Below are positions 26,008 to 48,378 of a DNA stretch of 64,000 bases, one piece after another. Position 1 is the first letter of the stretch; every line of letters begins with the position of its first letter. The notes under the pieces were generated by a model. It saw only the letters and a list, made by a program, of their open reading frames with translations. It searched no databases and had not been told where the DNA came from. The stretch lies in NCBI GenBank assembly GCA_025830695.1, contig GCA_025830695.1_4111.1. The stretch is one strand, 5' to 3'. Origin of the DNA: a phage. Both the position numbers and the translations under genes were made by a program.

Positions 26008-26436
26008 ATGAATATCGAACAAACTATCCGTGAACATTCTTTCTTCGCTCCAGAAACTGGTCGTGTTATTGAGAGCGTCAAAATCGAAGAACTAATGGTC
26101 AATGTTAAATACAAAGAACCAAATGATGAGATTAGCAGTACTTTTTGTGCTCTACGTGCACCATTCCGTAATGAAAAAGCTAAGAAACCAGCATATGTTC
26201 TTGCCATTGCACTGGGTTGTGTTGTAAAACTTGCAGTTGATGAAAATCTTCTGAATATTAAAGTTGCACCAAGCAATGACGATGAAAACATTGATTTGAA
26301 CTTTGATGGTTCTCTTGATGAAGATGTATTTTTCCAACAGTCACTTGTTTACGACTTCCGTACAGTGACACATTCTCACATCAAGTTCATTAATGAAATG
26401 GTTGAGATTGTTGCTGAATACGAAGAATCTCTCTAA
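26008..26436 (+). CDS. EExFFQxS-motif family protein (member 1)
   Basis: C-terminal DEDVFFQQSLVYD. Confidence 0.6.
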   Translation: MNIEQTIREHSFFAPETGRVIESVKIEELMVNVKYKEPNDEISSTFCALRAPFRNEKAKKPAYVLAIALGCVVKLAVDENLLNIKVAPSNDDENIDLNFDGSLDEDVFFQQSLVYDFRTVTHSHIKFINEMVEIVAEYEESL

Positions 26437-26445
26437 GTAAATACA

Positions 26446-26470
26446 AAAGCCTCCATTATGGAGGCTTTTA
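26446..26470 (+). terminator. intrinsic terminator
   Basis: AAGCCTCCA-TTA-TGGAGGCTT followed by TTATC. Confidence 0.6.
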
Positions 26471-26489
26471 TCACATAAGGAAATGAAAT

Positions 26490-27041
26490 ATGATAGACCA
26501 AATTAAAATCCTTACAAAGCAAATCACTGATTTTCTTTCTGATAAAGATGGATTTAATACAGAAGTAAAAATGCACGGTGTTAGTGTTGATGTAATTGCA
26601 CCAAATGGTAATGTAACAAGTTACGACATGTATGAATTACTTCTTTATACTCTAGCAGTACGTAAACTAGGTAGTGATATTGAACTCAATATCAATACTG
26701 ATGAAAGTGGGAATAAAATTTTTGCAATCAACACCAGTGCTAAATTCGATATCAGTACTGAAATTAAAAAAATAAATGAAAGTTTTATTGGCTTTAAGCA
26801 TGAATCAATTCAAAGTGTTTTTATTGGAAAGCAAACTTCTAATAGTGAATGCCCATATTGTGTAATGACTTTATATAAAGATGGAAACTGGATGCGTCAA
26901 GATTTAGTATTTGCTGAACTTCTGTATGCATTTACACATGAACTTAAAATCGAATTGGACGATAGTGTTTATTGCTTTAAGAAAATTCGAAATATAACTA
27001 AAGATATACAAACCCAACTTAAAGAATTAAATGATAAATAA
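26490..27041 (+). CDS. hypothetical protein
   Basis: 183-aa ORF, RBS AAGGAAA. Confidence 0.55.
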   Translation: MIDQIKILTKQITDFLSDKDGFNTEVKMHGVSVDVIAPNGNVTSYDMYELLLYTLAVRKLGSDIELNINTDESGNKIFAINTSAKFDISTEIKKINESFIGFKHESIQSVFIGKQTSNSECPYCVMTLYKDGNWMRQDLVFAELLYAFTHELKIELDDSVYCFKKIRNITKDIQTQLKELNDK

Positions 27042-27147
27042 ATATACCAGAAATGGTTAACATATCATGTTACTTTCCTCCCTTACATAATAATGATGCG
27101 TTATTATATTTTCATTTTGTTCTTATTCCCCTTTTGGTACAAAATCA

Positions 27148-27170
27148 TTTTAGTACTGCCCCGATCTTCG
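27148..27170 (+). terminator. intrinsic terminator
   Basis: GCCCCGA-TCT-TCGGGGC followed by ATTTTT. Confidence 0.65.
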
Positions 27171-27201
27171 GGGCATTTTTCTTATCTAAAATTGAGGATA
27201 T

Positions 27202-27597
27202 ATGAAGAACAATATTGGAACTTCAATAATTAAACCACTTTCTTATTACCTTGAAAAATTTAGAAGCACAAATGGTAATAAATTTAATAATATATTTCAG
27301 TTCTCTCATAAAGAATATATTACAATTGATCATTTTTCAAAGAAACTAATGTATGTAAATGATAATAGTCATATTATTAAATTATCATTCGATATTGAGT
27401 TAGATAAATTAACATTTACGGAATACATTAATCAAAAAACTTCTTTTTTATGTCAATACAATAGGAAAGTATATAGTAATATTTCTATGTATCTAAATGA
27501 TGAATATCACTTTCAACAATCTACAATAGAAGAAGTATTGTTCAGTACTGAAGAATTAAAAGAACTATATTACTGGTATAATTATTTCACATCTTGA
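27202..27597 (+). CDS. EExFFQxS-motif family protein (member 2)
   Basis: C-terminal NDEYHFQQSTIEE. Confidence 0.6.
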   Translation: MKNNIGTSIIKPLSYYLEKFRSTNGNKFNNIFQFSHKEYITIDHFSKKLMYVNDNSHIIKLSFDIELDKLTFTEYINQKTSFLCQYNRKVYSNISMYLNDEYHFQQSTIEEVLFSTEELKELYYWYNYFTS

Positions 27598-27652
27598 CAT
27601 TATTGTGGGTTTATCCTACAATACATGATGATGCTGCATTGAGGATAAATTT

Positions 27653-28063
27653 ATGAGTTTAGATTTACACAATGAACTAAAATATTTTTTAGATTTGGAC
27701 ATATCAGAATTGAACCACCACGTCAATCATATGACTAGTACTGTATGGTGGTCTAATGATCAAGACGACCCAATTATCCAACTAAGTGATGAATCGTCAA
27801 TTATGCGATTTTATAAGATTAATTATAAAAAGAACATCAAGATCACATATGTACCATACAAAAACATACTACTAGTCGAAACACTTAATCCAAGTTCTTT
27901 ATTAAAAATCACAGATTTAGATACATTACAAACAAGTGAATCTTTATTCCAACGTTCATTAGTTGATGATCTTGGTGGTATTACTTTTGAAGATATATTA
28001 CAATTGAAGAATATGTATAGTGAATTGTTGGAGATTAAAAACACTTTAGTAATGGGGAATTGA
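27653..28063 (+). CDS. EExFFQxS-motif family protein (member 3)
   Basis: C-terminal SESLFQRSLVDDLGGITFED. Confidence 0.6.
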   Translation: MSLDLHNELKYFLDLDISELNHHVNHMTSTVWWSNDQDDPIIQLSDESSIMRFYKINYKKNIKITYVPYKNILLVETLNPSSLLKITDLDTLQTSESLFQRSLVDDLGGITFEDILQLKNMYSELLEIKNTLVMGN

Positions 28064-28064
28064 T

Positions 28065-28469
28065 ATGGTAAGTTTACTAGATATTGATAATACCAGTTTA
28101 GTGCTGGTGAAAAAAGGTTTAATTCCCAATTCTACAAAAATTGATTATGCTGTTATTGAAACAAATATTGGAAATATCTGGTACGACTCTGAAAGGGATA
28201 TTGTGTTTAGCTGTGTAGACAGTGATCGATCTGAATGTTGTAGAGTCGGTCATGACGGACAATTTGTTTTTGAATTTCGTTATTGGAAGGACGCAAAATT
28301 TCACCAAGAACTGGTTGCTTTGTCAAATGAACTATATACAGAAGAATCGTTCTTCATGGCTAGTACTATTAATGATTTTGGTTCAGTTACATTTGAGTAC
28401 TATAAAAAGATATACGCACTATCCAGAGAAGTTATGAAAATTATCAGAACTGCTGAAGGTAAAGAATAA
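28065..28469 (+). CDS. EExFFQxS-motif family protein (member 4)
   Basis: C-terminal TEESFFMASTINDFGSVTFE. Confidence 0.6.
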   Translation: MVSLLDIDNTSLVLVKKGLIPNSTKIDYAVIETNIGNIWYDSERDIVFSCVDSDRSECCRVGHDGQFVFEFRYWKDAKFHQELVALSNELYTEESFFMASTINDFGSVTFEYYKKIYALSREVMKIIRTAEGKE

Positions 28470-28470
28470 C

Positions 28471-28848
28471 ATGACTACTATATATGATATTTTGGGTGTT
28501 CTGAGTAGAAATATAGATGATGATTTTGTTATTGTTCAAGATACTAGAAATACATTTCAACTACCAATAGGTTCACCAGATAGGTTAATTTTTAATAGAT
28601 ACTCAAATGAACTAACTTACATCCATGATGGGATTGCAATTGTATCAGTTTCTATAAACGACTATACAATACGATATGTATATGACTTCAACGATTATTG
28701 TACAAGAATCCACAGTATTGATATTTCCGAAGAGGAACTATTCCAATTGTCATTGATTGAGAAAAATGTAATAGGAATTACAGAAATTGGTATTATTAAA
28801 AAAGCATTAAACTATACAAATATAAGAATTAATGGTGGGTGCAGATGA
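28471..28848 (+). CDS. EExFFQxS-motif family protein (member 5)
   Basis: C-terminal SEEELFQLSLIE. Confidence 0.6.
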   Translation: MTTIYDILGVLSRNIDDDFVIVQDTRNTFQLPIGSPDRLIFNRYSNELTYIHDGIAIVSVSINDYTIRYVYDFNDYCTRIHSIDISEEELFQLSLIEKNVIGITEIGIIKKALNYTNIRINGGCR

Positions 28849-29300
28849 ATGTTGACGAAATAAAAAATCATTTTGAAATTGCAATGTCATGTGAATTTGA
28901 CACACAACGTGTTCATGACCCGAAAGAACATATACGCATTTGTTGTGAATTGTCAGATGATTGTAATATTTTTATTGGAAAAACCTATGACATGATCGAT
29001 CTTTCATGTATAGATCCATTGGAAAGAAAAACAAAATATTTATATCTGTACAACACAACATCAGATACGATTGCAATACAACTAATATCAACCACAACAT
29101 CCCAAAGTTATTATAACATAACTGAGGTTAGTAGTTTAACGTTAACCGAAGAAGGATTCTTTCAACAATCGCTTATTCGTGAAATTGGTGTTAGTTATGA
29201 TGAGTTAAATGTATTAGTAGATTGTTTCGAAAAATTGAGTACTTTTGTATTATCCCTTTTTAATATACAGTCGCAAAATCCAATGGTGGTGAAATGCTAA
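28839..29300 (+). CDS. EExFFQxS-motif family protein (member 6)
   Basis: C-terminal TEEGFFQQSLIREIGVSYDE. Confidence 0.6.
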   Translation: MQMNVDEIKNHFEIAMSCEFDTQRVHDPKEHIRICCELSDDCNIFIGKTYDMIDLSCIDPLERKTKYLYLYNTTSDTIAIQLISTTTSQSYYNITEVSSLTLTEEGFFQQSLIREIGVSYDELNVLVDCFEKLSTFVLSLFNIQSQNPMVVKC

Positions 29301-29734
29301 ATCCAAGTAAATTTCTCCACTTACTTTCGATAACATCAATACCGGATCTTACCAGTGAAACTAATGAATATCGTGAAGCTGGGGTGGTGTCTATGGAACT
29401 CGATACATTTGACCACAAATGCTATGTGACATATGACCCACCGCGTTATGGTAAAGAACATTCTTCTTTTATTTTTGTATTCGTATACACTGTATATGAT
29501 AATACAACACTTGATGATGTTTGTATTGACACTTACGAAATTTGTGATAATATCATAACTGATGACAACAATAACTCATTTGATATGTCACTATATAACA
29601 CAGAAGAATCGTTGTTTCAACTTAGTACTGTTATTGATGCACCATCATTAGAAGATATAAAACAATTTCAAGAACATCTTGACGCAGTTCGTGAGATGTT
29701 CTATAATCATTATCCAGAAGTAGAGTTCAATTAA
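29294..29734 (+). CDS. EExFFQxS-motif family protein (member 7)
   Basis: C-terminal TEESLFQLSTVID. Confidence 0.6.
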   Translation: MLNPSKFLHLLSITSIPDLTSETNEYREAGVVSMELDTFDHKCYVTYDPPRYGKEHSSFIFVFVYTVYDNTTLDDVCIDTYEICDNIITDDNNNSFDMSLYNTEESLFQLSTVIDAPSLEDIKQFQEHLDAVREMFYNHYPEVEFN

Positions 29735-29748
29735 CTAAAGGTAATAAG

Positions 29749-30009
29749 ATGACTAAAGTAGTTCGTAAACGCCACATGATGAACATGGATGAATTTCGCA
29801 CATTTGACAAATATCGTACTATGTTTCGTATGCTTTCACAGGGCCGTCCAATCGTCATTGTAACAGAGAATTACATGTCACCTGAGATTATGTTTGGTAA
29901 TTATGAAAAGGTCTTCATGTTGTACGTGAAGCGTGGATTACTTACAATCAAGACATTAGCTGAAGCAACTGATGAAGATATGGATGGTGATAATACCTTT
30001 ACCATGTGA
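29749..30009 (+). CDS. hypothetical protein
   Basis: 86-aa ORF, RBS AAAGG. Confidence 0.5.
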   Translation: MTKVVRKRHMMNMDEFRTFDKYRTMFRMLSQGRPIVIVTENYMSPEIMFGNYEKVFMLYVKRGLLTIKTLAEATDEDMDGDNTFTM

Positions 30010-30081
30010 GGAAATATATGTCTGAAAAGCCAAAAGAACCATTAGATCGTGATGATGATTTTTATGACGAACGATATGGAG

Positions 30082-30339
30082 ATGATGATGAGTGAACATA
30101 GTGCTGTGCTTAAAAAGATTTTAAAGGAACTTGATGGTGAGTTTAATGTCACAGAAGAAGACTATCAGCATTGGAAGAAAGGTTTTGAACAACTAACCGA
30201 GTATGATAAAGTGTTCAATATGATTGGCGTAATTAGCCAGTACTTACTCGGTGGAGGACGTGCAAGTGCTTCAATTCTGGCATCTGCAATCATCTGTACA
30301 TCACGATGGTGTGATGAAAAAAGTTTGGAAGATTTCTAA
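30082..30339 (+). CDS. hypothetical protein
   Basis: ORF-track ORF; start among clustered ATGs after GGAG; exact start uncertain. Confidence 0.4.
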   Translation: MMMSEHSAVLKKILKELDGEFNVTEEDYQHWKKGFEQLTEYDKVFNMIGVISQYLLGGGRASASILASAIICTSRWCDEKSLEDF

Positions 30340-30391
30340 ATAAGATGCTATAATATATTATAGTACCTTAACAATATAAAAAGGATTTTAT

Positions 30392-31252
30392 ATGAAACCT
30401 ATCCGAGTACTTTCTCTTTTTAATGGAATGAGTGTGGGATATATGGCATTGCAAGATGCTGGTATCCCAGTTGAAAAATATTATTCATCCGAAATTGATA
30501 AGTACGCAATAGCTGAATCTCAATCTAACTTTCCTGATATTATCCAATTGGGTGATGTAACTAAGTGGAGAGAATGGGATATTGAGTGGGACAAAATAGA
30601 TTTATTAATGGGTGGTTTCCCATGCCAAGCCTGGTCAGTTGCAGGTAAACAGGGTGGTTTAAATGATATACGTGGGCAGTTATTTTTAGTAATGGTTGAA
30701 ATTTTTGATCATATCAAAAGTCTCAATCCTAACTTGAAATTTCTGTTTGAAAATGTTAAAATGAAGGAAGATTTCAAAGAATACATTAATAGTATTTTAG
30801 GAATCACGCCAGTACTGATAAACTCCCAGCATTATACGCCTCACTTCAGGCAGAGATATTACTGGTACAGTACTGATAAGCTTTTTATACCACCTGCATT
30901 ATCCAATGCACCTAAACTTCAAGATATTATTGAAGATGGTTGGTACACTGACAGAACCGCTTCGTACTGTATAGATGCTAACTATTTTAAAGGTGGTGAT
31001 TGTAACCAGTACTTTAATAAATCCAGACGACAATTGGTGTTTCGTGACCCAGTGATCAGTCGTCAATATCTATTAGAGAATGGCAAAAGAAATATTGACT
31101 ATAGACACTTAAGTGTAGTAGAATGTTGTAAATTACAGGGTGTTCCTGAAGATTTCTTTAAAGTGTCTAGTAAGACACAAGCATACAAAATGCTTGGGAA
31201 TGGATGGACTATGCCAGTTATATCACATTTACTAAGAGAGATATTCTTTTGA
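30392..31252 (+). CDS. DNA (cytosine-5)-methyltransferase
   Basis: Motif I-like LFNGMSVG, motif IV GFPCQAWSVAG, motif VI FENVK, motif X MLGNGWTMPV; preceded by TGcTATAAT. Confidence 0.75.
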   Translation: MKPIRVLSLFNGMSVGYMALQDAGIPVEKYYSSEIDKYAIAESQSNFPDIIQLGDVTKWREWDIEWDKIDLLMGGFPCQAWSVAGKQGGLNDIRGQLFLVMVEIFDHIKSLNPNLKFLFENVKMKEDFKEYINSILGITPVLINSQHYTPHFRQRYYWYSTDKLFIPPALSNAPKLQDIIEDGWYTDRTASYCIDANYFKGGDCNQYFNKSRRQLVFRDPVISRQYLLENGKRNIDYRHLSVVECCKLQGVPEDFFKVSSKTQAYKMLGNGWTMPVISHLLREIFF

Positions 31253-31734
31253 ACATAAACAAATACCAAACTTATATAAAACGTACAGAAAGTTTCAAAC
31301 GGCTGGCTGTAAAATCTGAATTAGAATTTAATTTGTATTATCCTAATATTGGTGATGAGGTATTTTATTGCTCTCATTCAAAGAATGGAACTTTACTTAA
31401 ATCGGGTAAAGGAACTATTGTTGATATGACCGCAAATTTCAGAGGTAAACTTAATGTAATGTACAAAGTACAAGATTCAAGTACTGAGTGTATTCATGAA
31501 GTGATGCATAACATACCTGCATATCCAAAAGATTTTGTTCAGCTAATATCTCGAAGGGAGAAACCTATGTTTTATTGTGGTTACGATAAATTAACCAAAC
31601 AAATTATTCCTAATACTATGGGAAAATTTAAAAGTGATGTGAAATCTGAACTTGAAAAGAAATTTGGCACGTCATGGGAAACTGAAAACGAGTTTATCGA
31701 AATTCGTTTAATTGAAATTACTATACTTGAATAA
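31249..31734 (+). CDS. hypothetical protein
   Basis: ORF-track frame; possible TTG start overlapping MTase stop; start uncertain. Confidence 0.4.
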   Translation: MNINKYQTYIKRTESFKRLAVKSELEFNLYYPNIGDEVFYCSHSKNGTLLKSGKGTIVDMTANFRGKLNVMYKVQDSSTECIHEVMHNIPAYPKDFVQLISRREKPMFYCGYDKLTKQIIPNTMGKFKSDVKSELEKKFGTSWETENEFIEIRLIEITILE

Positions 31735-31740
31735 TTACAA

Positions 31741-31765
31741 ATCCACGCATTGCGTGGATTTTTCA
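31741..31765 (+). terminator. intrinsic terminator
   Basis: ATCCACGCA/TGCGTGGAT palindromic hairpin followed by TTTTTC. Confidence 0.6.
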
Positions 31766-31776
31766 TAGGTGCATAT

Positions 31777-32292
31777 ATGCCAATTCCTTATGTTAAAATT
31801 ATTAATAATATTCTCGATTCATGGGAAGATGTTATTACTGGTAAAAAGAAACCATCACCAGTACATGCTTTATCTGGGAAACTTCAATTCAGAATGTCAA
31901 ACCAAACTGAAACATTTAATAATCATGATATTTGCATTACATTAAAAACACCTGTTAGTATTGTAATTAAAAAAAATAAAGATGATGAATTGACATTATC
32001 TATTGGTCGTGATAAAATCATTTTAAGTAATTTGTCTGAAGAAGAATTCTTTCAAAGAAGTACTATTATCGATATGAAAGATTTCACATATGAATCATTG
32101 GTTGAACTCAATACACGTTTTAACGATATTCAGGAACGATTGCGACCAATTCTTCGTATCGAAGAAGAAGCCTGGATTGAAAGTATTAGGAAGATGCAAG
32201 AAATGTTGAAAGAAAATATTAACAATCTGGGTAAAGCTACAATGGAATTTGGTAAAACTTTTAAACTGAACTTTTCAAAGGATCGTAAATGA
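31777..32292 (+). CDS. EExFFQxS-motif family protein (member 8)
   Basis: SEEEFFQRSTIID; start trimmed to ATG 31777 downstream of terminator. Confidence 0.55.
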   Translation: MPIPYVKIINNILDSWEDVITGKKKPSPVHALSGKLQFRMSNQTETFNNHDICITLKTPVSIVIKKNKDDELTLSIGRDKIILSNLSEEEFFQRSTIIDMKDFTYESLVELNTRFNDIQERLRPILRIEEEAWIESIRKMQEMLKENINNLGKATMEFGKTFKLNFSKDRK

Positions 32293-32744
32293 AAATTGAT
32301 AATTTGATTCATGTTTTAGGATCTTTACATAAAATATTATCACATCTACATGAGATAAAGAAACTGGGATTTAACATCTCAAATTCAATTGAAACTACAT
32401 TTAAATATCAATCAATTACTGGTGATGGTTATTACATAATCGAATATACTTATGAAACCGATCCAGACTTCTATCCTCTTACGTTGAGAATTTATCCAAC
32501 AAATCCGAGAGGAATTCACGACATATCATCAATTTCACTTGATCCAGATGGTGAAACGAGTATTGAATACAATAATGATTCAAAACCAGAATTTTACATT
32601 GATGATATTAAAATGATGTTCAACGATGAATATGTTTTCCAACAAAGTACTGTGCATGATGTTGGAAGTACTAATGGACAATTTTGGAATACATGTTATT
32701 ATCATATGATTGAAATTTGTAAATTACTAAAAGGTGATGAATAA
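32289..32744 (+). CDS. EExFFQxS-motif family protein (member 9)
   Basis: NDEYVFQQSTVHD. Confidence 0.6.
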   Translation: MKIDNLIHVLGSLHKILSHLHEIKKLGFNISNSIETTFKYQSITGDGYYIIEYTYETDPDFYPLTLRIYPTNPRGIHDISSISLDPDGETSIEYNNDSKPEFYIDDIKMMFNDEYVFQQSTVHDVGSTNGQFWNTCYYHMIEICKLLKGDE

Positions 32745-33127
32745 TGAAATACTGCATTGAAGTACATTACACTACAGGGGACACTGAAACTGAAGATTCA
32801 GTTACCAATACATTGGATGTTCAATGGGAATCAAAGGATGAGGCAGTTGTAGCATTACAGTCTTTGAAAGAGCATTGGGTATTCTTTAAGAAACTCGATG
32901 ATGCATATAGTAACGAACGTGCTACAATAATCGATGAAGCCAAACATAAAGAATGGTTTGATCCAATGTCATGTGAATTCTCTTTCTTTGTAAAAATTGG
33001 AGATGAAAAAATCCCAGTACGTACACCGTGGAACGGCTACTTTGAAACTCTTCATAATGCACGAGTTGTCGCTGTTGATAATCCTGAACAAATCGATTTC
33101 GATTCATTGGACTGGAAAAAACTATGA
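32744..33127 (+). CDS. hypothetical protein
   Basis: 127-aa ORF, overlapping start/stop. Confidence 0.5.
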   Translation: MKYCIEVHYTTGDTETEDSVTNTLDVQWESKDEAVVALQSLKEHWVFFKKLDDAYSNERATIIDEAKHKEWFDPMSCEFSFFVKIGDEKIPVRTPWNGYFETLHNARVVAVDNPEQIDFDSLDWKKL

Positions 33128-33567
33128 CAGTACTGCACCAATTGAAGAAGGTTAAGCATCCAGTTGTATATGAGGACTGGAAACGTCAGAAGCTGATGGG
33201 TGATTTTTATTTCCCAAAATCTAAAGTACTAGCAACGTCAAAAGCTATATACTTGAAATATAAGGATGAAGATTGTTTGTGTATTCAAATGGGATTCCAT
33301 CCTAAAGTTGGTTTGTTTACAACAAATCAAACATTTTATAAATTTAGAATTCAAAAAGATACATTTAGTATTCATATCGAAAAACATGATGTACAAGATA
33401 CAATTTATCGTGTGGAAAGTGAGCCTTTGAATCTTGTTGAGATCCCGTACAATAATTTAGAAGAAATGTACTTTCAGCAGTTGACAATACAAGAAGACTT
33501 TGGTATGATAGGACTTCAAGAGTTAGAGATGATTAAACAAATTCGTGATATCTACTTTAAGGAGTAA
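33124..33567 (+). CDS. EExFFQxS-motif family protein (member 10, divergent)
   Basis: LEEMYFQQLTIQEDFG. Confidence 0.55.
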   Translation: MTVLHQLKKVKHPVVYEDWKRQKLMGDFYFPKSKVLATSKAIYLKYKDEDCLCIQMGFHPKVGLFTTNQTFYKFRIQKDTFSIHIEKHDVQDTIYRVESEPLNLVEIPYNNLEEMYFQQLTIQEDFGMIGLQELEMIKQIRDIYFKE

Positions 33568-33569
33568 CT

Positions 33570-33713
33570 ATGCCAGTACGTAACAGTACTTCACGCTTTA
33601 CGCTTCAACAGAAAGCAGATCTTTTGAATATGGCAAACAAAGATTCTAATTTTCACTATCTAGTGCTCGGTGGGTCAGTAGAAAAGATTGACCTACGTGA
33701 GTGTATGAAATAA
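33570..33713 (+). CDS. small hypothetical protein (47 aa)
   Basis: Not in ORF track (under 60 aa); strong RBS AAGGAG before ATG. Confidence 0.4.
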   Translation: MPVRNSTSRFTLQQKADLLNMANKDSNFHYLVLGGSVEKIDLRECMK

Positions 33714-33727
33714 CAAAAGGGGCTAAA

Positions 33728-33898
33728 ATGAGTCTACGTGAATCATGGGAACAATTTAAAGAAGAGATTGGTTATCGTGGTGTTAAGATTGAACCAATCA
33801 ATCGTACTGAAAGCATCAAAGCTAGTACTAATGGTACTACCTATGATCGTTATGATGAAAAGTATGGTTTACATTCTAAACCAAAGGATACTGAGTAA
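33728..33898 (+). CDS. small hypothetical protein
   Basis: ORF-track ORF trimmed to ATG after AAAGGGG. Confidence 0.4.
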   Translation: MSLRESWEQFKEEIGYRGVKIEPINRTESIKASTNGTTYDRYDEKYGLHSKPKDTE

Positions 33899-34037
33899 TG
33901 GTGTATACTAATATTTTTACTGGTATTATGCGTAAATTTATTAATGGTACTGGATACGTATCTAATGATAACGGTAGTACATGGGTAAAAAATAATACGT
34001 CTGAATCTTTAGTAAAAAGTCTTCCGTATTATAAAGC

Positions 34038-34066
34038 TTGACACATGAAAATGGAGTATATATAAT
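34038..34066 (+). promoter_or_regulatory. sigma70-type promoter
   Basis: TTGACA-N17-TATAAT. Confidence 0.55.
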
Positions 34067-34098
34067 ACTCCTATATTAATTAAACGAGGATATACGAA

Positions 34099-37946: not shown

Positions 37947-38339
37947 ATGACTGAATCAGAACTACACGAAATGATAGATTTCATTTATGAAATGGTACAA
38001 GATAAAAATAACATCAATACAATTGCATCAGGCCCAAGACAAATTGGTAACCAAATAACATATTCTTTGTCCTTATGGTTACACCCGTGCATTAAGGTTG
38101 ATTGTTTGTATTTCCGTCCTGATATTGATGCTTATTATTTTGTCAATCATGATGCATTAATGAAACCACATAATCGTCCAGTTGATGATACCTTTGTGAC
38201 ACACCCATTTTACCTGGCTGATTCCGAAGAAGATGAGTTTCAAAAGAACACAACGTTAAGCCCAGGTGAAATTTGCATCCCTTACGTACTTAAAGATAAA
38301 ATGAATCACATCACAGAAGTTATGAAAACATGCTGGTAG
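37947..38339 (+). CDS. EExFFQxS-motif family protein (member 11, EEDEFQK subtype)
   Basis: SEEDEFQKNTT. Confidence 0.5.
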   Translation: MTESELHEMIDFIYEMVQDKNNINTIASGPRQIGNQITYSLSLWLHPCIKVDCLYFRPDIDAYYFVNHDALMKPHNRPVDDTFVTHPFYLADSEEDEFQKNTTLSPGEICIPYVLKDKMNHITEVMKTCW

Positions 38340-38387: not shown

Positions 38388-38606
38388 ATGAAATTTATTG
38401 ATTTTGATATTTCTAAGGCCAAAGAATTATTTGTAAGAAATGAAGTTTATGATATCATGTTACATAACGGCACTGTACAAGAAGATGTTGTGTTGTTTTC
38501 GTTTGATGGTGAAAATCTCGAAACTATATATAAATTCAGCAACTTAGATGGTGACTTTTGGGAAACCAGTGCTGTTAAAATGTATAGAATTAAAAAGGAG
38601 CATTAA
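38388..38606 (+). CDS. hypothetical protein
   Basis: Trimmed to ATG after AGGAGGA. Confidence 0.5.
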   Translation: MKFIDFDISKAKELFVRNEVYDIMLHNGTVQEDVVLFSFDGENLETIYKFSNLDGDFWETSAVKMYRIKKEH

Positions 38607-38607
38607 C

Positions 38608-39096
38608 ATGCCAATTCGTGGTGTACCAGAACCATTAATGGAAGTTATTAAGCATGTTCGCATTGGAGATCGAGAAGTTAATCTTCGCCGTAATAACATT
38701 TATTACTTTAAAACTTCAGAAATGAGTTCTGTACAGATTGTCATTGGTACATCTATTAAGATTACTCGTGTACTTGATGGTAGTACTGACTTCGTTGAAT
38801 ATAATGTACTTACTAATAAAGTAACGCATATATATAAATGGAGTGGGTATAAAACTATTAAGTATGAATTTGACTTAGCTAGAACTGAAGAAGAACGATT
38901 TATGCTGAGTACTATCAATCCAGCAAACTATCCCGATCTTGATGCATTTTTGCTAATTTTAAAATTGTATAATGAAGCAAATCAGAAAGCTAAAGAGTAT
39001 GATAGAATCATGTATGAACGCCGAAAAGAACGTGCACAAAAAAGTTATGATCTGTATGATAGCCCATACGTGAAATATAGTAAGGGGTCGAAATGA
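38608..39096 (+). CDS. EExFFQxS-motif family protein (member 12)
   Basis: TEEERFMLSTINP; start at ATG after AAGGAG. Confidence 0.55.
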   Translation: MPIRGVPEPLMEVIKHVRIGDREVNLRRNNIYYFKTSEMSSVQIVIGTSIKITRVLDGSTDFVEYNVLTNKVTHIYKWSGYKTIKYEFDLARTEEERFMLSTINPANYPDLDAFLLILKLYNEANQKAKEYDRIMYERRKERAQKSYDLYDSPYVKYSKGSK

Positions 39097-39497
39097 ATAA
39101 AGAAGTTCAAATTATCATAACTCCACCTATACAAAGTCTGGATGTATCCATTAGTGATTTTTTGGAAAAATACTATGAATGGTTTAATGAAGATTCAGTA
39201 ATTTATAACCATTCATTACCAGATGGTTTCGTGGAGCTTATCGAATTAAATTCAAAATCACTATACTTCTGTGTTGAATACAATGATTATATGACAGATG
39301 AAGCTTATCGCTTTCGTTGTACATTGTATCCGAATTATTTTTCAATAGGTTATAAAGATTACCAGTACTGTACCACTAACTATAGTGTTGAGGAAGAATT
39401 TCAGTACAATTTACTTTATCCTGATTTAGATTATACGATTGCAGTACTGTTGACTAAAATCATGGATTTTTATAAAGATAAATATAATGCAGCCTAA
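39093..39497 (+). CDS. EExFFQxS-motif family protein (member 13, divergent)
   Basis: VEEEFQYNLLYPD. Confidence 0.5.
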   Translation: MNKEVQIIITPPIQSLDVSISDFLEKYYEWFNEDSVIYNHSLPDGFVELIELNSKSLYFCVEYNDYMTDEAYRFRCTLYPNYFSIGYKDYQYCTTNYSVEEEFQYNLLYPDLDYTIAVLLTKIMDFYKDKYNAA

Positions 39498-39848: not shown

Positions 39849-39865
39849 TAACCTTTTCCATTGTC

Positions 39866-39926
39866 CATTGCAATGCTTTCTTTACAGAAGAATAAATGAA
39901 ACACTTAATTGAACTGGATACATAAA
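39866..39926 (+). pseudogene. decayed remnant of the 3' end of a paralog of gene 40229-40444
   Basis: Near-identical DNA to 40386-40444 but with an in-frame stop. Confidence 0.4.
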
Positions 39927-40103
39927 ATGACACATGAAGAATGGATAGAGTCACTAAAATATAAACATGATCATTTTGGATTTGGTATACGCCAAGGCCA
40001 TTATGATGTTTTGAACGATAAAAAAACGTTCGAATCATTGGTTTTGGACGAAGATTCCAACCACTGGTTCATCTACGAGCTTGCTATTAGAGATAAAAAA
40101 TAG
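39927..40103 (+). CDS. MTHEEW-family small protein (member 2)
   Basis: MTHEEWIESLKYKHDHFGFGIRQGHYDVLND... Confidence 0.55.
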   Translation: MTHEEWIESLKYKHDHFGFGIRQGHYDVLNDKKTFESLVLDEDSNHWFIYELAIRDKK

Positions 40104-40108
40104 TAAGA

Positions 40109-40444
<336 letters not shown>

Positions 40445-40445
40445 A

Positions 40446-40628
40446 ATGACACACGAAGAATGGATGTCCAAACAGCATAAAGAACATGACTGCTTTGGGA
40501 ATGGCATTCGTCAGGTACATTATGATATATTAAGAGATGAAAATCTTTTCAGGTCATATGTTTTGGATACCAGAAAACCCTGGTTTATATGCGAACTGGC
40601 ATTTAGAAAGTCAAATAATCAAAACTAA
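40446..40628 (+). CDS. MTHEEW-family small protein (member 3)
   Basis: MTHEEWMSKQHKEHDCFGNGIRQVHYDILRD... Confidence 0.55.
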   Translation: MTHEEWMSKQHKEHDCFGNGIRQVHYDILRDENLFRSYVLDTRKPWFICELAFRKSNNQN

Positions 40629-40644
40629 ACAAGGAATACAAAAA

Positions 40645-40863
40645 ATGGAAACAACTTTATTTGAAGTTATTCAATCATTAAAACCTGAAGATGAGGTTCA
40701 AGTACTACTACATGGTTATCGTGTAAAAGGTACTGTGGTTTTAGTCAATGATACAACATTGGTTATTACAGAAACAAACCCATATGATAGTAATCAACTT
40801 GCCAATATCCATATCGATATCACTGGAATTATTGGTGTCGGTGTATCTAAAACACTTGCATAA
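40645..40863 (+). CDS. hypothetical protein
   Basis: Trimmed to ATG after AAGGAA. Confidence 0.5.
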   Translation: METTLFEVIQSLKPEDEVQVLLHGYRVKGTVVLVNDTTLVITETNPYDSNQLANIHIDITGIIGVGVSKTLA

Positions 40864-40916
40864 ATCATTAATTCATTATATAATGATTATCACTGGTTCT
40901 AGATGAGGATAATATT

Positions 40917-41189
40917 ATGCATTTTGAAAAATTCAACGTAAATCGTAACACACGCATTGAAGTTCTTTATGAAACTCAAGACACCATTAGTATTCGTACA
41001 AGTAGTGGGGATGTATATCATGACTGTACGATTGGCTGGGAACAGGGAAGGACGCGTAGTGCAGTATTTGATAATTATCGCTTTTATCAAGGAGACACTA
41101 CGATTTGGCCTGAATACGTAGAAGATATTGCGTTTGAAGATGAACATAAAGATGAATTTATCAAATTTAATCCTCAAACTGAATCATAA
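40917..41189 (+). CDS. hypothetical protein
   Basis: 90-aa ORF, RBS GAGGA. Confidence 0.5.
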   Translation: MHFEKFNVNRNTRIEVLYETQDTISIRTSSGDVYHDCTIGWEQGRTRSAVFDNYRFYQGDTTIWPEYVEDIAFEDEHKDEFIKFNPQTES

Positions 41190-41193
41190 ATAA

Positions 41194-41323
<130 letters not shown>

Positions 41324-41326
41324 AAT

Positions 41327-41427
<101 letters not shown>

Positions 41428-41429
41428 CA

Positions 41430-41590
<161 letters not shown>

Positions 41591-41594
<4 letters not shown>

Positions 41595-41751
41595 CACATG
41601 AAGAATGGATGAATGACATTAATTTTAGATATTCGGGTATCGGTAAATGGCTAAAGTATCATTGGGAATTCATTTCAGAGCCACATCTGTATGATAAACT
41701 TATCAACGATCCAGCATATGAAATGTACTTAATTGAACTACTGGTACGATT

Positions 41752-41755
<4 letters not shown>
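41591..41755 (+). CDS. MTHEEW-family small protein (member 5)
   Basis: 54 aa, about 80 percent DNA identity to member 4; ATGA overlap. Confidence 0.5.
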
Positions 41756-41917
<162 letters not shown>

Positions 41918-41925
41918 AAAAAAAG

Positions 41926-42335
<410 letters not shown>

Positions 42336-42339
<4 letters not shown>

Positions 42340-42371
42340 CTAAATAATTCAGTACTGAGGATATTAATATG
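42336..42371 (+). promoter_or_regulatory. degenerate copy of the promoter cassette
   Basis: TTGACTAAATAATTCAGTACTGA then a poor -10. Confidence 0.3.
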
Positions 42372-42396
42372 TTTAAAGATGAACGTCCAGATTTGT

Positions 42397-42444
<48 letters not shown>

Positions 42445-42449
42445 ATCAG

Positions 42450-42782
42450 ACGTATATGGTGTAAGTTACGTCGATGCAATCCAGAACAAGATCTCTGGTA
42501 CTCTAGGAAGTGGTGAATGTTAACCTAGACGGGTTTGATAATTGGACGATAGGCAATTATTACTTGACTAGCAGGTTTAAACTAGAGGTGACTATCCTTC
42601 ACCAAACTGGAAAACCGGATGGACTTTTATTTAAAAGGGTAAGGCGTGGAAATATGTTTACAGAAGTTGCTTTTAGTAGCCTGTACGCCCCACGTCAAGG
42701 TAGCCGAAAGGCAAGTTAAGACGGGTGGTTATAAAGCTGAATTAACAGCGGCGTTTAAAAGCGTCACCATCCATTTTTTTTT
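42450..42782 (+). ncRNA. candidate structured non-coding RNA
   Basis: About 330 nt without a credible ORF, visibly GC-richer than flanks, promoter upstream and T9 run at 3' end. Confidence 0.3.
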
Positions 42783-42798
42783 AATTAAAGTTGGTGAT

Positions 42799-43608
<810 letters not shown>

Positions 43609-43632
43609 ACGAAATTACAATAGGAAATTAAA

Positions 43633-43818
43633 ATGCAACTTTTAATTCTTTCAATATTGTATATTATTATAATGGTTCCGATATCAATACGTTTAATTAC
43701 ACTTGAACGATTTTTATCGAAACATGGAAATAGATCTATGATCTTAGTACCAATCGGGCTTATATTGTTTGGTATTTTTGCATTTATAATGGGAATTAAC
43801 GCTACATTCATTTCATAG
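43633..43818 (+). CDS. small membrane protein
   Basis: 61 aa, two hydrophobic helices. Confidence 0.45.
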   Translation: MQLLILSILYIIIMVPISIRLITLERFLSKHGNRSMILVPIGLILFGIFAFIMGINATFIS

Positions 43819-43827
43819 GAAACAAAT

Positions 43828-44085
<258 letters not shown>

Positions 44086-44093
44086 GAATTTAA

Positions 44094-44495
44094 ATGAAAA
44101 AGAATGACTTGATCAAAATGCTTCAAGAAATTGACGGCAATCCAGAGATTGTTATTTGGAATGGATACGTCGATGATTATATGAACATCGAAAAAGGCTT
44201 GACTAAAATCACTCTAGTCAAAGAAACCGAACAGTTTCTTCAGGGTGCATTAGAGCACGAATGGTGTGAACGTAACAATACATTCGACATTCCAGAAGAC
44301 CAACGAACCAAGATTGCAGAACGTGCTAAAGAACTGCATAAGAAACGTGAATACGATTTCCAGAACCCATATGTCACTGAAGACGAATTCAATCGCTGGT
44401 ACGGTAAAAAGAAATTGATAAAGTATGTCCTTTCACCTAAACTACGTGGTAAGACTTCACTTGGTGTATTCAACGCCGCAGACTTAAACTACTAA
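44094..44495 (+). CDS. hypothetical protein
   Basis: 133-aa ORF. Confidence 0.5.
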   Translation: MKKNDLIKMLQEIDGNPEIVIWNGYVDDYMNIEKGLTKITLVKETEQFLQGALEHEWCERNNTFDIPEDQRTKIAERAKELHKKREYDFQNPYVTEDEFNRWYGKKKLIKYVLSPKLRGKTSLGVFNAADLNY

Positions 44496-44507
44496 GAGAG
44501 TATTTAA

Positions 44508-44981
<474 letters not shown>

Positions 44982-45016
44982 CAGGGGAGGTTGTGATTCC
45001 CGATTCAGTAGCTTAT

Positions 45017-45139
<123 letters not shown>

Positions 45140-45140
45140 T

Positions 45141-45275
<135 letters not shown>

Positions 45276-45277
45276 TA

Positions 45278-45334
<57 letters not shown>

Positions 45335-45419
45335 AGTAAGAGTAAAAATGAAAGTAAGTAAAAAAACTACCAAGCAGCTTGAAGAACTTTGTAGTGCTGC
45401 ACCTATGCCGACTCTTGGC

Positions 45420-45520
<101 letters not shown>

Positions 45521-45532
45521 TATCTTACTTCT

Positions 45533-45622
<90 letters not shown>

Positions 45623-45628
45623 TACACT

Positions 45629-46054
45629 ATGAAATACAACATTGTTAAAATGGTGAACTATATATTAAAAAACAACGCATGGTCACTGCATGATGTACAA
45701 TTAGAAGATATTGGTGAAGTTAGAGTATTTTGCTATGATCCAGATTTGAATCAAACCACAGATTTGAGTAAATGTTTTAATATTTTTCTTGGTTATGAAT
45801 TCAATAATCATTTTTATTCATTTGATGTGTATTTTGAAAAAGTTATATTCAGAAGTTATGAATGTGATAATGAAGATTATGATTATGATGATGAATCAAT
45901 TGAATTGAATGTTAACGATATTGATACTGAAGAAAAATTCTTCCAGTACTGCCTCCTTAACGACACATTAGGATTAACATTTGAGGACATTAAAGCTATA
46001 CTTAAAGTTCAAAAGTTGATTCCAGAAGAGGTTCTAAATCCATTAAATGACTAG
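45629..46054 (+). CDS. EExFFQxS-motif family protein (member 16)
   Basis: TEEKFFQYCLLNDTLGLTFED. Confidence 0.55.
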   Translation: MKYNIVKMVNYILKNNAWSLHDVQLEDIGEVRVFCYDPDLNQTTDLSKCFNIFLGYEFNNHFYSFDVYFEKVIFRSYECDNEDYDYDDESIELNVNDIDTEEKFFQYCLLNDTLGLTFEDIKAILKVQKLIPEEVLNPLND

Positions 46055-46412
46055 TCTAATAGTACGTATAATGCAAGATGTTTGTAATAACCTTTATACA
46101 GGCAATTTTGACGATCCGAACATAAAAATATTATGTTATGATGGTTTTACAATGGTACATCCATCCTATTCAAATAATATCTACGTAGCATATACAGGTG
46201 AAAATCTATTATATCAATTTGATATATATAGTACAATGACAAAGATAATTTTGGATGCCTCTAAACCAGCAATCTTTATTGCTTCTCATGATTACCATTA
46301 CACTGAAGAATCACTATTTCAGTACTCAATGATTAATGACATTGGTGGGTTGACATTGGATGAGGTTAATGCTATACTAGCTGTCTCACGTTTGGTTAAA
46401 ACCCACAATTAG
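46047..46412 (+). CDS. EExFFQxS-motif family protein (member 17)
   Basis: TEESLFQYSMINDIGGLTLDE. Confidence 0.6.
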   Translation: MTSLIVRIMQDVCNNLYTGNFDDPNIKILCYDGFTMVHPSYSNNIYVAYTGENLLYQFDIYSTMTKIILDASKPAIFIASHDYHYTEESLFQYSMINDIGGLTLDEVNAILAVSRLVKTHN

Positions 46413-46421
46413 GAGATTCAT

Positions 46422-46613
46422 ATGTTCTGGAATTTATTATGCTTGTTTGGTCGTACATTGGTTCTTGCTATTATTCATACACCTGGTATTCGTAATTATG
46501 TTTCTTATGAATTTAAGAAAAATTATCACAACAATACTGAAGTTCGTACAACTAAGATGTGCAAAGACTTCAAGGTAGATGTTCCACCATTCAAGAAGTA
46601 CGAGGATGAATAA
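46422..46613 (+). CDS. small membrane-anchored protein
   Basis: 63 aa, RBS AGGAG. Confidence 0.5.
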   Translation: MFWNLLCLFGRTLVLAIIHTPGIRNYVSYEFKKNYHNNTEVRTTKMCKDFKVDVPPFKKYEDE

Positions 46614-46897
46614 TGGAATTCATTGTTGCACCTGATGAACTTAAAACATTCACGTTCAGAGATAATAACAATTATCCTTATACAAATCATTCATTGAATT
46701 CATTACATGTTATTGCAATCATTGCATCTGAATACAGGGATAATCCATGTATTGATTTTAAAACCACTGATGGCGAATATACATGGGTGATCCCAAAAGA
46801 TAAATATAGTTATCAAGGGGCAGTAGAAATTCGTGACTCGATTCTAAAACAAATCGAAGATGGAAATACTCATCCTAAACTAAACACTCAGTACTGA
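46613..46897 (+). CDS. hypothetical protein
   Basis: 94-aa ORF. Confidence 0.5.
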   Translation: MEFIVAPDELKTFTFRDNNNYPYTNHSLNSLHVIAIIASEYRDNPCIDFKTTDGEYTWVIPKDKYSYQGAVEIRDSILKQIEDGNTHPKLNTQY

Positions 46898-46910
46898 AAT
46901 CGTTTAACCC

Positions 46911-46966
46911 GATAGCTTCTAGTCAGTACTGATTCCTCCTTATGTATAGAAGCTATCACTTTTTTA
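46911..46966 (+). terminator. hairpin with large loop plus T-run (terminator-like)
   Basis: GATAGCTTCTA/TAGAAGCTATC stem, 25-nt loop, followed by TTTTTT; flanked by TCAGTACTGA copies. Confidence 0.4.
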
Positions 46967-47085
46967 CGTATAATGATATTACCCTCAAATTCATTATATT
47001 CGTTACCCTCTAACAGTATCTTTTTATTCCTCTTGGATGCTGTAATTTAGAAGTTGACTTTTTAACTTCTACTGTGTTATACTTA

Positions 47086-47114
47086 AGGCTGATTCGATGA
47101 ATCGGCCTTTTTTC
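47086..47114 (+). terminator. intrinsic terminator
   Basis: AGGCTGATTC-GAT-GAATCGGCCT followed by TTTTTTC. Confidence 0.65.
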
Positions 47115-47122
47115 TTATATAG

Positions 47123-47551
47123 GTGAATGCAATGAGTTATTTGTTTACTTTAATTGATAAGTATGTTGACATTGTATACCGTCAAGTTTGTAGTGATACG
47201 TTTGAAACAAAAAACCCAATTAGAGATGGCATTTTTGATGTTGTCGTTGGATCATTTTTGAATGGATACACCGAGACATTATACAACAGTAATAATATTT
47301 TTATTTCAGTTCAATCCAGACATACATCAGACTATGCTGTTAGCATTGATATTTGGGAAAATAATATAGAAATAGATATAACGGAACATACTAACATTCA
47401 TGTTGATGATACATTTAATCAATTAACTGAAGAAATGTACTTGCAGTTGAATTTTGTACATGATCTTACAAATATCAGTTATGATACATTAAGGAAAATA
47501 TGTTTTCTTAGTGGGGCGATCCGTAGTAATATGAGTAAGGATGGGAAGTGA
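47123..47551 (+). CDS. EExFFQxS-motif family protein (member 18, divergent)
   Basis: TEEMYLQLNFVHD. Confidence 0.5.
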   Translation: MNAMSYLFTLIDKYVDIVYRQVCSDTFETKNPIRDGIFDVVVGSFLNGYTETLYNSNNIFISVQSRHTSDYAVSIDIWENNIEIDITEHTNIHVDDTFNQLTEEMYLQLNFVHDLTNISYDTLRKICFLSGAIRSNMSKDGK

Positions 47552-47552
47552 A

Positions 47553-47969
47553 ATGTTAAAAATTCCACCTAAGTCGTTAACACATCTTATTGAATGTGGT
47601 GTAATATTTTCCGAAGGTGATACCTCATCATACACATTGGTCGATGAACCTTATAATTTTTCATACCAATCTTATAAAAATAATTCTAAAATTTCTTGTA
47701 GAGATGCTGAAAACATATTAATAGATGTTTCGTTACATAATGTTCCGAAATTTTACATTGATATCTTTGGTGATTCTTTGACAATTCGAACATATGATTA
47801 TTTTATTAATAACGACCTCTTGAGTCTTCCAATTGAACATGATACTATAGATTCAGAGATGTTCTTTCAACTATCAACAGTTTACGATTTACAGGGTTTA
47901 ACTGTTGAGCAGTTGAATGGAATATTTGAGATTTCACGAAACATACGAAGCAGGAATAAAAATGTCTAA
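47553..47969 (+). CDS. EExFFQxS-motif family protein (member 19)
   Basis: DSEMFFQLSTVYDLQGLTVEQ. Confidence 0.55.
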   Translation: MLKIPPKSLTHLIECGVIFSEGDTSSYTLVDEPYNFSYQSYKNNSKISCRDAENILIDVSLHNVPKFYIDIFGDSLTIRTYDYFINNDLLSLPIEHDTIDSEMFFQLSTVYDLQGLTVEQLNGIFEISRNIRSRNKNV

Positions 47970-48378
47970 TATTTTAAATGAAAAAACAGTTGATGTTGTT
48001 ATTGGTGTTCTTAACACCGCAACTTCATTTCAGAAGAAACACAGTACTGTATACTTCGGTGACGATTGTTGGCTGAACTATACATCTGATAATTCGTTTA
48101 TAATTCGTGTTGAGAAGGGTGATATTGGATTAACGATACATGCTTCCCACACTAAAACTGATAAGAAAATCACTGTTATTGCAAACAAGCCAAGTGTCTC
48201 AGATTTCTGGGATAGAATTGATGATTGCGACCATTTCATGTCAACATTCTATAAAACAGAAGAAGAACATTTCATGGATAGTACGGTCAAAGAATTAGCT
48301 ATTCCATTTAAACTTATGAAAGCAGTAAGAGATTTTATTTTAAAATACAAAAAAATAGGAGTTACTAATGCAATTTAA
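47962..48378 (+). CDS. EExFFQxS-motif family protein (member 20)
   Basis: TEEEHFMDSTVKE; start trimmed to ATG after AGGAA. Confidence 0.5.
   Translation: MSNILNEKTVDVVIGVLNTATSFQKKHSTVYFGDDCWLNYTSDNSFIIRVEKGDIGLTIHASHTKTDKKITVIANKPSVSDFWDRIDDCDHFMSTFYKTEEEHFMDSTVKELAIPFKLMKAVRDFILKYKKIGVTNAI

Follow-up and report, generated by a model that had tools for sequence, protein, structure and literature searches.

The phage contig GCA_025830695.1_4111.1, a stretch of 64,000 nucleotides (nt) referred to here as the window and used for all coordinates, encodes 21 small proteins with a common C-terminal block of the motif [TS]-E-E-x-[FYL]-F-Q-x-S-[TL]-[VIL]-x-D…[TS]-x-[ED]-[ED]. Twenty of their genes lie within 26008-48378 (18 robust and two divergent members), and one lies apart at 62484-63002. 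As judged from profile searches, they belong to a multigene family that is specific to the clade of Rak2-like jumbo phages and numbers approximately 51 genes per Asteriusvirus genome. Structure models indicate that the family is probably built as a single compact α-β5-α-α domain, with the block as its α2–loop–α3 core hairpin and not a detachable tail. It is an uncharacterised, lineage-specific multigene family in a large virus. The explanation favoured for it, at slightly less than an even chance, is that it is a clade-specific family of early-expressed small-protein binders for host takeover or anti-defence, carried on one stable scaffold.

That the family is real and expanded, as an earlier sequence-only reading of this DNA had proposed, was borne out in several ways. 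A loose regular expression of the motif gave 20 matches in + strand reading frames and none in the other frames or on the other strand; the 21st copy, in 39093-39497, is looser than these matches. Leave-one-out profiles of the C-terminal block, searched against the 254 open reading frames (ORFs) of the window, recovered 20 of the 20 members in the span (E 4.5e-12 to 0.048), and 62484-63002, which was outside the training set, scored E 6.5e-5. With family-wide profiles, all 21 members were found at E <= 1e-5 and the next ORF at E >= 0.12, i.e., with a clean gap. An independent profile, trained on 40 members solely from other arrays and another phage, recovered 16 of the 21 with E <= 3e-5, placed another three at 0.02-0.07 and missed two 'EEDEFQK' variants, 37947-38339 and 42796-43176, which are alike at the motif and are best called divergent members. 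Both the leave-one-out and the independent profiles indicate that conservation of the motif is significant for the family. The earlier count of 21 within 26008-48378 is right for the window once 62484-63002 is included, and one too many for the span itself; the 20 span members total 2,883 amino acids (aa), or about 8.7 kb and 13.5% of the window, in agreement with the earlier estimate of well over a tenth. Three other ORFs (26490-27041, 22986-23567 and 49762-50103) were weighed as candidates for membership and rejected (E >= 0.16). Two of these, both on the + strand, have degenerate motif-like C-termini that are not significant, namely, …HYFYHTLMGTKDFGLKFDDL… in 49762-50103 and …SAETFQYSVSEPKSPFDF… in 22986-23567 (RaK2 counterpart EEFSFQNSLIEP), and they may be eroded family relatives.

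Members range from approximately 115 to 180 aa. The motif begins 83-114 residues from the N-terminus and is followed by 32-50 residues, with longer tails in two members. The N-terminal parts of 219 family proteins fell into 113 BLASTP clusters, and in HHalign comparisons of the N-terminal profiles of 13 subfamilies no pair reached 50% probability or did better than reversed controls, so that N-terminal homology is not demonstrable by sequence. Weak N-terminal similarity was seen in a few neighbouring pairs only, e.g., 45629/46047 at E 2e-5. At the sequence level, the N-termini are as unrelated as they had first appeared. The members have a median isoelectric point (pI) of 4.7, versus 5.8 for the other ORFs of 100-200 aa, with net charges down to -21 and a hydropathy that is negative or about zero in all of them, and they are accordingly predicted to be soluble, mostly acidic proteins. 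The sole basic members, 31750-32292 and 38548-39096 (both +; pI 8.6 and 9.4), carry 30-45 extra C-terminal residues past the module, which are basic and predicted to be helical.

Over 214 unique module sequences, the block starts as T60/S21/D6/N6 – E91 – E88 – x – F/Y/L – F99 – Q90 – x – S88 (numbers are percentages), continues as T53/L38 – V/I/L – x – D72 – hydrophobic – (G) – x – L/F/I/V, and ends as T45/S20/D10 – Y/L/F – E59/D17 – E/D, followed by an amphipathic helix. Structures were modelled with AlphaFold2 for two of the 21 members, 46047-46412 and 41986-42339, whose N-terminal parts show no detectable similarity to each other. The elements follow one another identically in both models (H-E-E-E-E-E-H(motif)-H), i.e., two N-terminally unrelated members share a predicted fold that includes the C-terminal module. 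The motif helix starts directly after the T/S, and beyond a short loop the last helix starts directly after the second T/S. By established rules, T, S, D and N are classical helix N-cap residues and S/T-x-x-E/D is a capping box; the residues at both helix starts appear to fit these N-cap preferences, with the second start resembling a capping box. Only positions N3, N7 and N11 of the motif helix vary, and these form one exposed stripe. This single variable stripe, together with the placement of the helix within the modelled fold, suggests that the motif helix is largely buried against the sheet and the other helices and does not serve as a free docking tag. Predicted structures of paralogues in BFVD, which were made independently of the alignments of this analysis, match the model of 46047-46412 with template modelling (TM) scores of 0.64-0.76 at 18-30% identity; the matches are solely uncharacterised proteins of Rak2-like phages (UB, PBECO4, CBB, fHe-Yen9-04, GAP32, RaK2, and pEa_SNUABM_47). 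Many distant homologues align across profile positions 5-135, which is almost its full length. The best reading of the models is that the sheet and the first helix have diverged past sequence recognition and that the core hairpin has been conserved. As an architecture, the 'variable heads on a constant tail' envisaged earlier is probably not correct, since two members model as a single domain with the motif helix packed inside.

Asteriusvirus-type jumbo coliphages, including BAU.Micro_ELP-22, SP27, PBECO4, SHEFM2K, 121Q, and phAPEC6, share 97-99% identity with 87-98% of the region 26000-48400; by this similarity, the window is assigned to an Asteriusvirus-type jumbo coliphage of the PBECO4/121Q group. 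Under the match, the annotation of these relatives reads 'hypothetical protein' throughout, except for a DNA methyltransferase, a membrane protein, and transfer RNAs (tRNAs). An iterative profile search (E <= 1e-3, with reversed-sequence decoys) of the 1,214 ORFs in the 339 kb assembled for PBECO4 returned 51 members, all on the gene strand, and no reversed decoys. These members occupy 22.9 kb, or 6.6% of the genome, and are arranged as 26 at 99-126 kb, 20 at 205-227 kb (the array of the window), and five scattered copies (at 29-30, 46, 155.6, and 190.4 kb). The larger array (NC_027364.1, 99-126 kb, loci L004/L005) encodes proteins of 103-207 aa, e.g., WDSEEYYFQQSTVYDNEVLD. The extent first perceived was therefore too small, as the 21 genes seen are less than half of the approximately 51 per genome. 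BLASTP detects only 41 of the 1,275 member pairs in PBECO4, which explains both the splitting of the family in PHROGs and the failure of annotation to join it. In PHROGs, window members fall full-length into many families of unknown function at E 1e-56 to 1e-118 (phrog_17453, 24510, 24941, 23322, 21500, 30841, 30548, 38573, 34619 and others), with weak cross-matches via the C-terminal block, and PHROGs does not unite these into one family.

Beyond the genus, a syntenic 40-kb locus of RaK2, a Klebsiella phage of a different genus, contains at least 14 members. The 40-residue consensus module matches 72 of 50,697 phage records, mostly phages of 310-386 kb and a few fragments, whose hosts belong to the Enterobacterales genera Escherichia, Salmonella, Klebsiella, Erwinia, Yersinia, Pectobacterium, Serratia, and Cronobacter, plus one Xanthomonas phage; among isolated phages, the module is confined to Rak2-like jumbo phages. 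An exhaustive profile search of 1.84 billion representative proteins yielded 161 clusters (at 50% identity) of 62-249 aa, nearly all of which keep the motif. All of these clusters are named 'hypothetical protein' only, and the longest distant homologues (185-249 aa) have no recognisable extra domain or informative fusion. On a 50-kb metagenomic contig, at least ten members are found within 20 kb.

No described relative was found. The members have no match in Pfam (E <= 1) and none of the 21 matches a known defence or anti-phage component in PADLOC; NCBIfam gave three chance-level matches only (E >= 0.03), and the best family-profile match among PDB sequences has E 0.68. The remark in the sequence-only reading that the proteins are not recognised from any described family is thereby upheld, with no known domain to refute it. 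Two of the closest known folds were considered and rejected: members did not show the Pfam MAM33 signature, seven-stranded sheet and strong structural match expected of the MAM33/p32 (gC1qBP)/p22 acidic protein fold, nor the sequence signature and strong fold match expected of the polo-box domain.

Paralogues in these phages have been remarked on before. Hua et al. 2017 (PMC5646251), who suggested that jumbo genomes may arise through tandem duplication, mentioned that more than 30 similar genes form an array in 121Q, in a text that does not list them. The remark is repeated in a 2026 review; it may concern the same array as the 26 members at 99-126 kb in PBECO4. About 35 zinc-ribbon copies were described in Bacillus phage G by Iyer et al. 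2021 (PMC7824862). Like the family studied here, the 121Q and phage G arrays consist of dozens of co-directional, small paralogues of unknown function that were read as tandem duplicates. The 121Q literature amounts to one sentence, whereas the family is found here as two arrays with scattered copies, very divergent and conserved across the clade. The RaK2 paper states that about 10% of proteins are paralogues, and the CBB paper lists 22 paralogous ORFs. Apart from these three remarks, which define no motif, fold, extent or distribution and propose no function, the literature on Asteriusvirus and Alcyoneusvirus contained no family description or functional screen.

The members are tightly packed and co-directional, with stop and start codons that overlap or abut, in a window with a G+C content of 32-36% and nearly all genes on the + strand. 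Near-consensus σ70 promoters (at least 11/12) number 29 on the + strand and two on the - strand, where 2.8±1.5 are expected. Ten of the 29 are perfect (12/12), and they are spread over the whole window, including its replication/structural part at 1-24 kb; when weaker matches are counted, there is no enrichment (107 versus 110.5 expected). Five sites lie directly ahead of members or runs of members, namely, 25713-25742 (+, 11/12, ahead of the first run), 27594-27622 (near-consensus, 31 nt upstream of 27653-28063), 41927-41954 (σ70-like, upstream of 41986-42339), 42406-42434 (+, 11/12, ahead of 42510-42719 and the member 42796-43176), and 45219-45246 (+, perfect consensus, 12/12, ahead of tRNA-Thr and the members 45629-46412). 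Genes for sigma factors are present in the phage, and none of its genes is annotated as an RNA polymerase subunit. Members are thus probably transcribed by host RNA polymerase, and the co-directional packed arrays behind near-consensus σ70 promoters suggest that this takes place early. The arrays contain no T4-type late promoter TATAAATA, which is a weak sign given its single occurrence on each strand of the window (about seven expected). Its + strand copy, 9445-9452, lies 12 nt upstream of the 806-aa gene at 9464, and the counterpart of this gene in PBECO4 carries a virion structural annotation, which suggests that this site is a T4-like late promoter and that the sequence is avoided elsewhere.

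Orthologues of 18 of the 20 span members were found in Ecwhy_1, at 43-98.5% identity (median 75.6%). Across these 18 pairs, the ratio of nonsynonymous to synonymous substitution rates (dN/dS) is 0.03-0.57 with a median of 0.24; replication/structural genes stand at 0.05 and the non-family neighbours at 0.16. In 15 of the 18 pairs, dN is higher for the N-terminal part (0.151) than for the C-terminal part (0.093; p=7e-4). Members are under purifying selection, and their N-terminal parts evolve faster. Five window members pair with specific RaK2 genes by their N-terminal region alone, and 28065-28469 has a RaK2 counterpart of 30% identity in an alignment that covers 98% of the member. Comparison of these sequences indicates that the paralogues are ancient and individually long conserved, with some turnover. 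For example, 47541-47969 is missing from the Ecwhy_1 locus and has no match in several close relatives of Ecwhy_1; other genomes of the Ecwhy_1 sister group carry it at 56-58% identity, and the DNA of phAPEC6 encodes it, unannotated, at 95% identity. This patchy occurrence among relatives reveals variation in gene content within the array.

In the favoured explanation, each gene would produce a small, mostly acidic, soluble, non-virion protein of a single domain, in which a helix at the N-terminus is followed by an antiparallel sheet of five strands and a pair of C-terminal helices. The conserved block would supply the N-cap T/S, the E-E of the first helix turn, the invariant F, the [TL][VIL] core, and the capping box of the second [TS]-x-[ED]-[ED]. 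The constant part would be the folding core and the variable part the exposed surface. Host RNA polymerase would express the arrays early, and each paralogue would bind a different host (or competitor) target stoichiometrically via its diversified surface. Of the three roles proposed earlier for the shared module, a common scaffold with diversified specificity fits best, and virion docking and a processing site are disfavoured. The binder or inhibitor mode of action is suggested by analogy with large-virus multigene families and phage early-gene arsenals. The MGF360, MGF505 and MGF110 families of African swine fever virus and the ankyrin/PRANC and BTB-Kelch families of poxviruses are arrays of diverged paralogues, generally host-interaction or immune-evasion factors. 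They likewise vary in copy content between strains and combine a conserved scaffold or box with variable surfaces; the family described here differs in belonging to a bacterial virus, in its unrelated fold, in its much smaller proteins, and in having no separate docking box evident.

Several points weigh against this explanation. All database searches ended without a function, and neither experimental nor homology-based evidence points to one. The alignments behind both structure models contained paralogues, which may have biased them toward one fold. The five polar residues E, E, Q, S and D of the block are 72-91% conserved, beyond the strict need of helix capping, and could mark a shared partner or ligand site. 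Early expression is read from promoter consensus only, and a literature search found no transcriptome for the Asteriusvirus/Alcyoneusvirus clade. No whole-gene positive selection was seen in the 18 pairs with Ecwhy_1, and dN of the family is not significantly higher than that of neighbouring non-family genes (p=0.16), which is weaker than an arms race would lead one to expect. Finally, absence from a 62-protein virion proteome, set out below, is compatible with low-copy packaging and does not exclude it.

A rather unlikely alternative is that the members are adaptors, in which the conserved hairpin docks all of them on one machine and the variable part picks the cargo, as in F-box or PRANC proteins; the hub could be a host hub or the phage proteolysis/chaperone apparatus. 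The polar conservation noted above, measured over the 214 unique modules, goes beyond what a pure core helix needs and argues for this model, as do a ClpS-like protein encoded in the window and the HslV-family and ATP-dependent proteases in the PBECO4 annotation. Against it, the models place the motif helix within a single compact domain, the one variable stripe implies that this helix is mostly buried, and there is no known common partner. A more specific version is a long shot: an E-E…F-Q…S…D face would dock some 50 paralogues to one hub, which could be the phage ClpS-like, HslV-like or ATP-dependent protease machinery or a host machine, and the diversified sheets would each bring in another host protein to be degraded or sequestered. 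If true, this F-box-like logic would give a bacterial virus its own programmable system for remodelling the host proteome. The ClpS-like gene at 2360-2905 (+, 181 aa) matches the ClpS adaptor above the Pfam cut-off (E 2e-5, 24.7 bits versus 23), and its product is assigned on this match as a phage-encoded homologue of ClpS, the N-degron adaptor of the ClpAP protease. It is preceded by a gene for a translation initiation factor IF3 homologue with IF3_N and IF3_C domains (1843-2346, +) and followed by one for a KTSC-domain protein (2977-3522, +).

Somewhat less credible is the view that the members are genome filler, i.e., relaxed duplicates that arose by tandem duplication during enlargement of genome and capsid and individually do little, with the motif kept for folding only. 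The tandem-duplication route of Hua et al. 2017 (PMC5646251) and their 121Q array agree with it, and so do a family dN/dS about five times that of core genes and the variable presence of at least one member. The selection data are hard to reconcile with relaxed duplicates, as all 18 testable orthologue pairs have dN/dS < 0.6. Moreover, orthologues remain recognisable between the Escherichia and Klebsiella phage genera (about 30% identity full-length), and the family persists in phages of eight or nine host genera and in 161 sequence clusters.

Self-assembly is improbable as well; here, the hairpin would be a homo- or hetero-oligomerisation interface, and the members would form a mixed cytoplasmic assembly, like p32/MAM33-like acidic trimers.

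The phAPEC6 orthologues of the family are gp083c-gp134c, and none of them is among the 62 proteins of the phAPEC6 virion proteome determined by mass spectrometry (PMC7247149 Table 1). In the annotation of RaK2 and PBECO4, no member is called virion structural, though neighbouring genes are. The virion-targeting role suggested earlier for the module finds no support in either observation, and a shared processing site, also suggested then, is unlikely in view of the absence of virion members, the non-modular fold and the variable residue after Q. A TEV/3C-type cleavage site was considered for the motif and rejected: Q is followed by Q30/Y16/L14/M7%, S is at +2, and the segment is helical inside the predicted fold. 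The idea that members are packaged and injected with the virion, or cut by a protease inside the motif, which superficially resembles E-x-x-Y-x-Q|S-type sites in a phage that has a prohead protease, is very improbable and is disfavoured because of the virion absence, the acidic and soluble nature of the proteins, the σ70 promoters, and the buried, helical motif with its variable residue after Q and conserved S at +2.

The individual members, all on the + strand, are as follows; E refers to the leave-one-out profile and Ei to the independent profile. The first run opens with a 142-aa protein (DEDVFFQQSLVYDF; 26008-26436; E 6.6e-4, Ei 3.1e-5), which has RaK2 ORF184 as its N-terminal orthologue. 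It continues with members of 131 aa (NDEYHFQQSTIEEV; 27202-27597; E 2.1e-7, Ei 2.1e-8) and 136 aa (TSESLFQRSLVDDLGGITFED; 27653-28063; E 3e-9, Ei 3.7e-7), and with the 134-aa member whose full-length orthologue in RaK2/K64-1 has 30% identity (TEESFFMASTINDFGSVTFE; 28065-28469; E 4.5e-12). Next come a 125-aa member (SEEELFQLSLIEKN; 28471-28848; E 1.9e-4, Ei 1.2e-5), one of 153 aa if counted from a GTG start, for which the ATG at 28845 is likelier (TEEGFFQQSLIREI; 28839-29300; E 2.3e-10, Ei 3e-10), and the most acidic member, with 146 aa and the net charge of -21 (TEESLFQLSTVIDA; 29294-29734; E 3.1e-8). A C5 cytosine DNA methyltransferase, according to the annotation of relatives, is encoded mid-array at 30392-31252 (+), and the RaK2 array also contains a peptidyl-tRNA hydrolase-like gene. 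Downstream, the member with a long C-terminal extension (SEEEFFQRSTIIDM; 31750-32292; E 9.2e-8) starts at 31777 in relatives, as mapped via phAPEC6 gp121c. It is followed by members of 151 aa (NDEYVFQQSTVHDVG; 32289-32744; E 2.6e-4, Ei 2.8e-5) and 147 aa (LEEMYFQQLTIQEDFG; 33124-33567; E 2.2e-3, Ei only 0.051), the latter at 8.4e-11 with the family-wide profile.

Further on, the divergent 130-aa member 37947-38339 (SEEDEFQKNTTLSPG; E 0.048, family-wide 7.4e-6) is followed by the member with the basic C-terminal extension (TEEERFMLSTINPA; 38548-39096; E 4.5e-5), which starts at about 38608 in relatives and has a RaK2 orthologue via its N-terminus, and by a 134-aa member (SVEEEFQYNLLYPDL; 39093-39497; E 0.028, family-wide 8.9e-8). 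Six tRNA genes (Gly, Ser x2, Met, Asn, and Thr) are interleaved with members and tiny ORFs between 40131 and 45612; Rfam at gathering score confirms five of the six, the exception being tRNA-Gly at 40131-40203. Within this stretch lie the 117-aa member used for the second structure model (TEEEYFQMSTVQEP; 41986-42339; E 1e-8), with a predicted local distance difference test score (pLDDT) of 88.9 and a predicted TM score (pTM) of 0.81 in AlphaFold2, and the second divergent member (DEEDEFQKRTVYEN; 42796-43176; E 1.5e-3, family-wide 4.5e-7), whose ORF is open from a GTG at 42646 and whose likely start is the ATG at 42796. A 141-aa member (TEEKFFQYCLLNDTLGLTFED; 45629-46054; E 2.2e-7) precedes the 121-aa member of the first structure model, to which its N-terminus is similar (TEESLFQYSMINDIGGLTLDE; 46047-46412; E 7.2e-12; pLDDT 88.3, pTM 0.81). 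The span closes with two 142-aa members, one at 47123-47551 (TEEMYLQLNFVHDLTNISYD; E 5.7e-3, Ei 2.1e-7) and the variably present one at 47541-47969 (DSEMFFQLSTVYDLQGLTVE; E 1.3e-10), which occurs in 28 phage records, and with a 153-aa member of uncertain start (TEEEHFMDSTVKELAIPF; 47917-48378; E 4.7e-5, Ei 5.4e-7). The 172-aa member outside the span (TEENVFQQSLIHNFE; 62484-63002) has Ei 2.1e-5.

Approximately 83% of the genes in these 350-kb phages are without known function. Roughly 9% of the genes and 6.6% of the DNA belong to this single family, which is a hallmark of the whole Rak2-like clade. About 50 'hypothetical proteins' per genome are united by a motif and a confident fold model, and, being non-virion and probably early, they become a tractable target. 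Should the members prove to inhibit specific targets, many new host-takeover or anti-defence activities could be drawn from the family, and it would also offer a natural case of binder diversification on a minimal scaffold.

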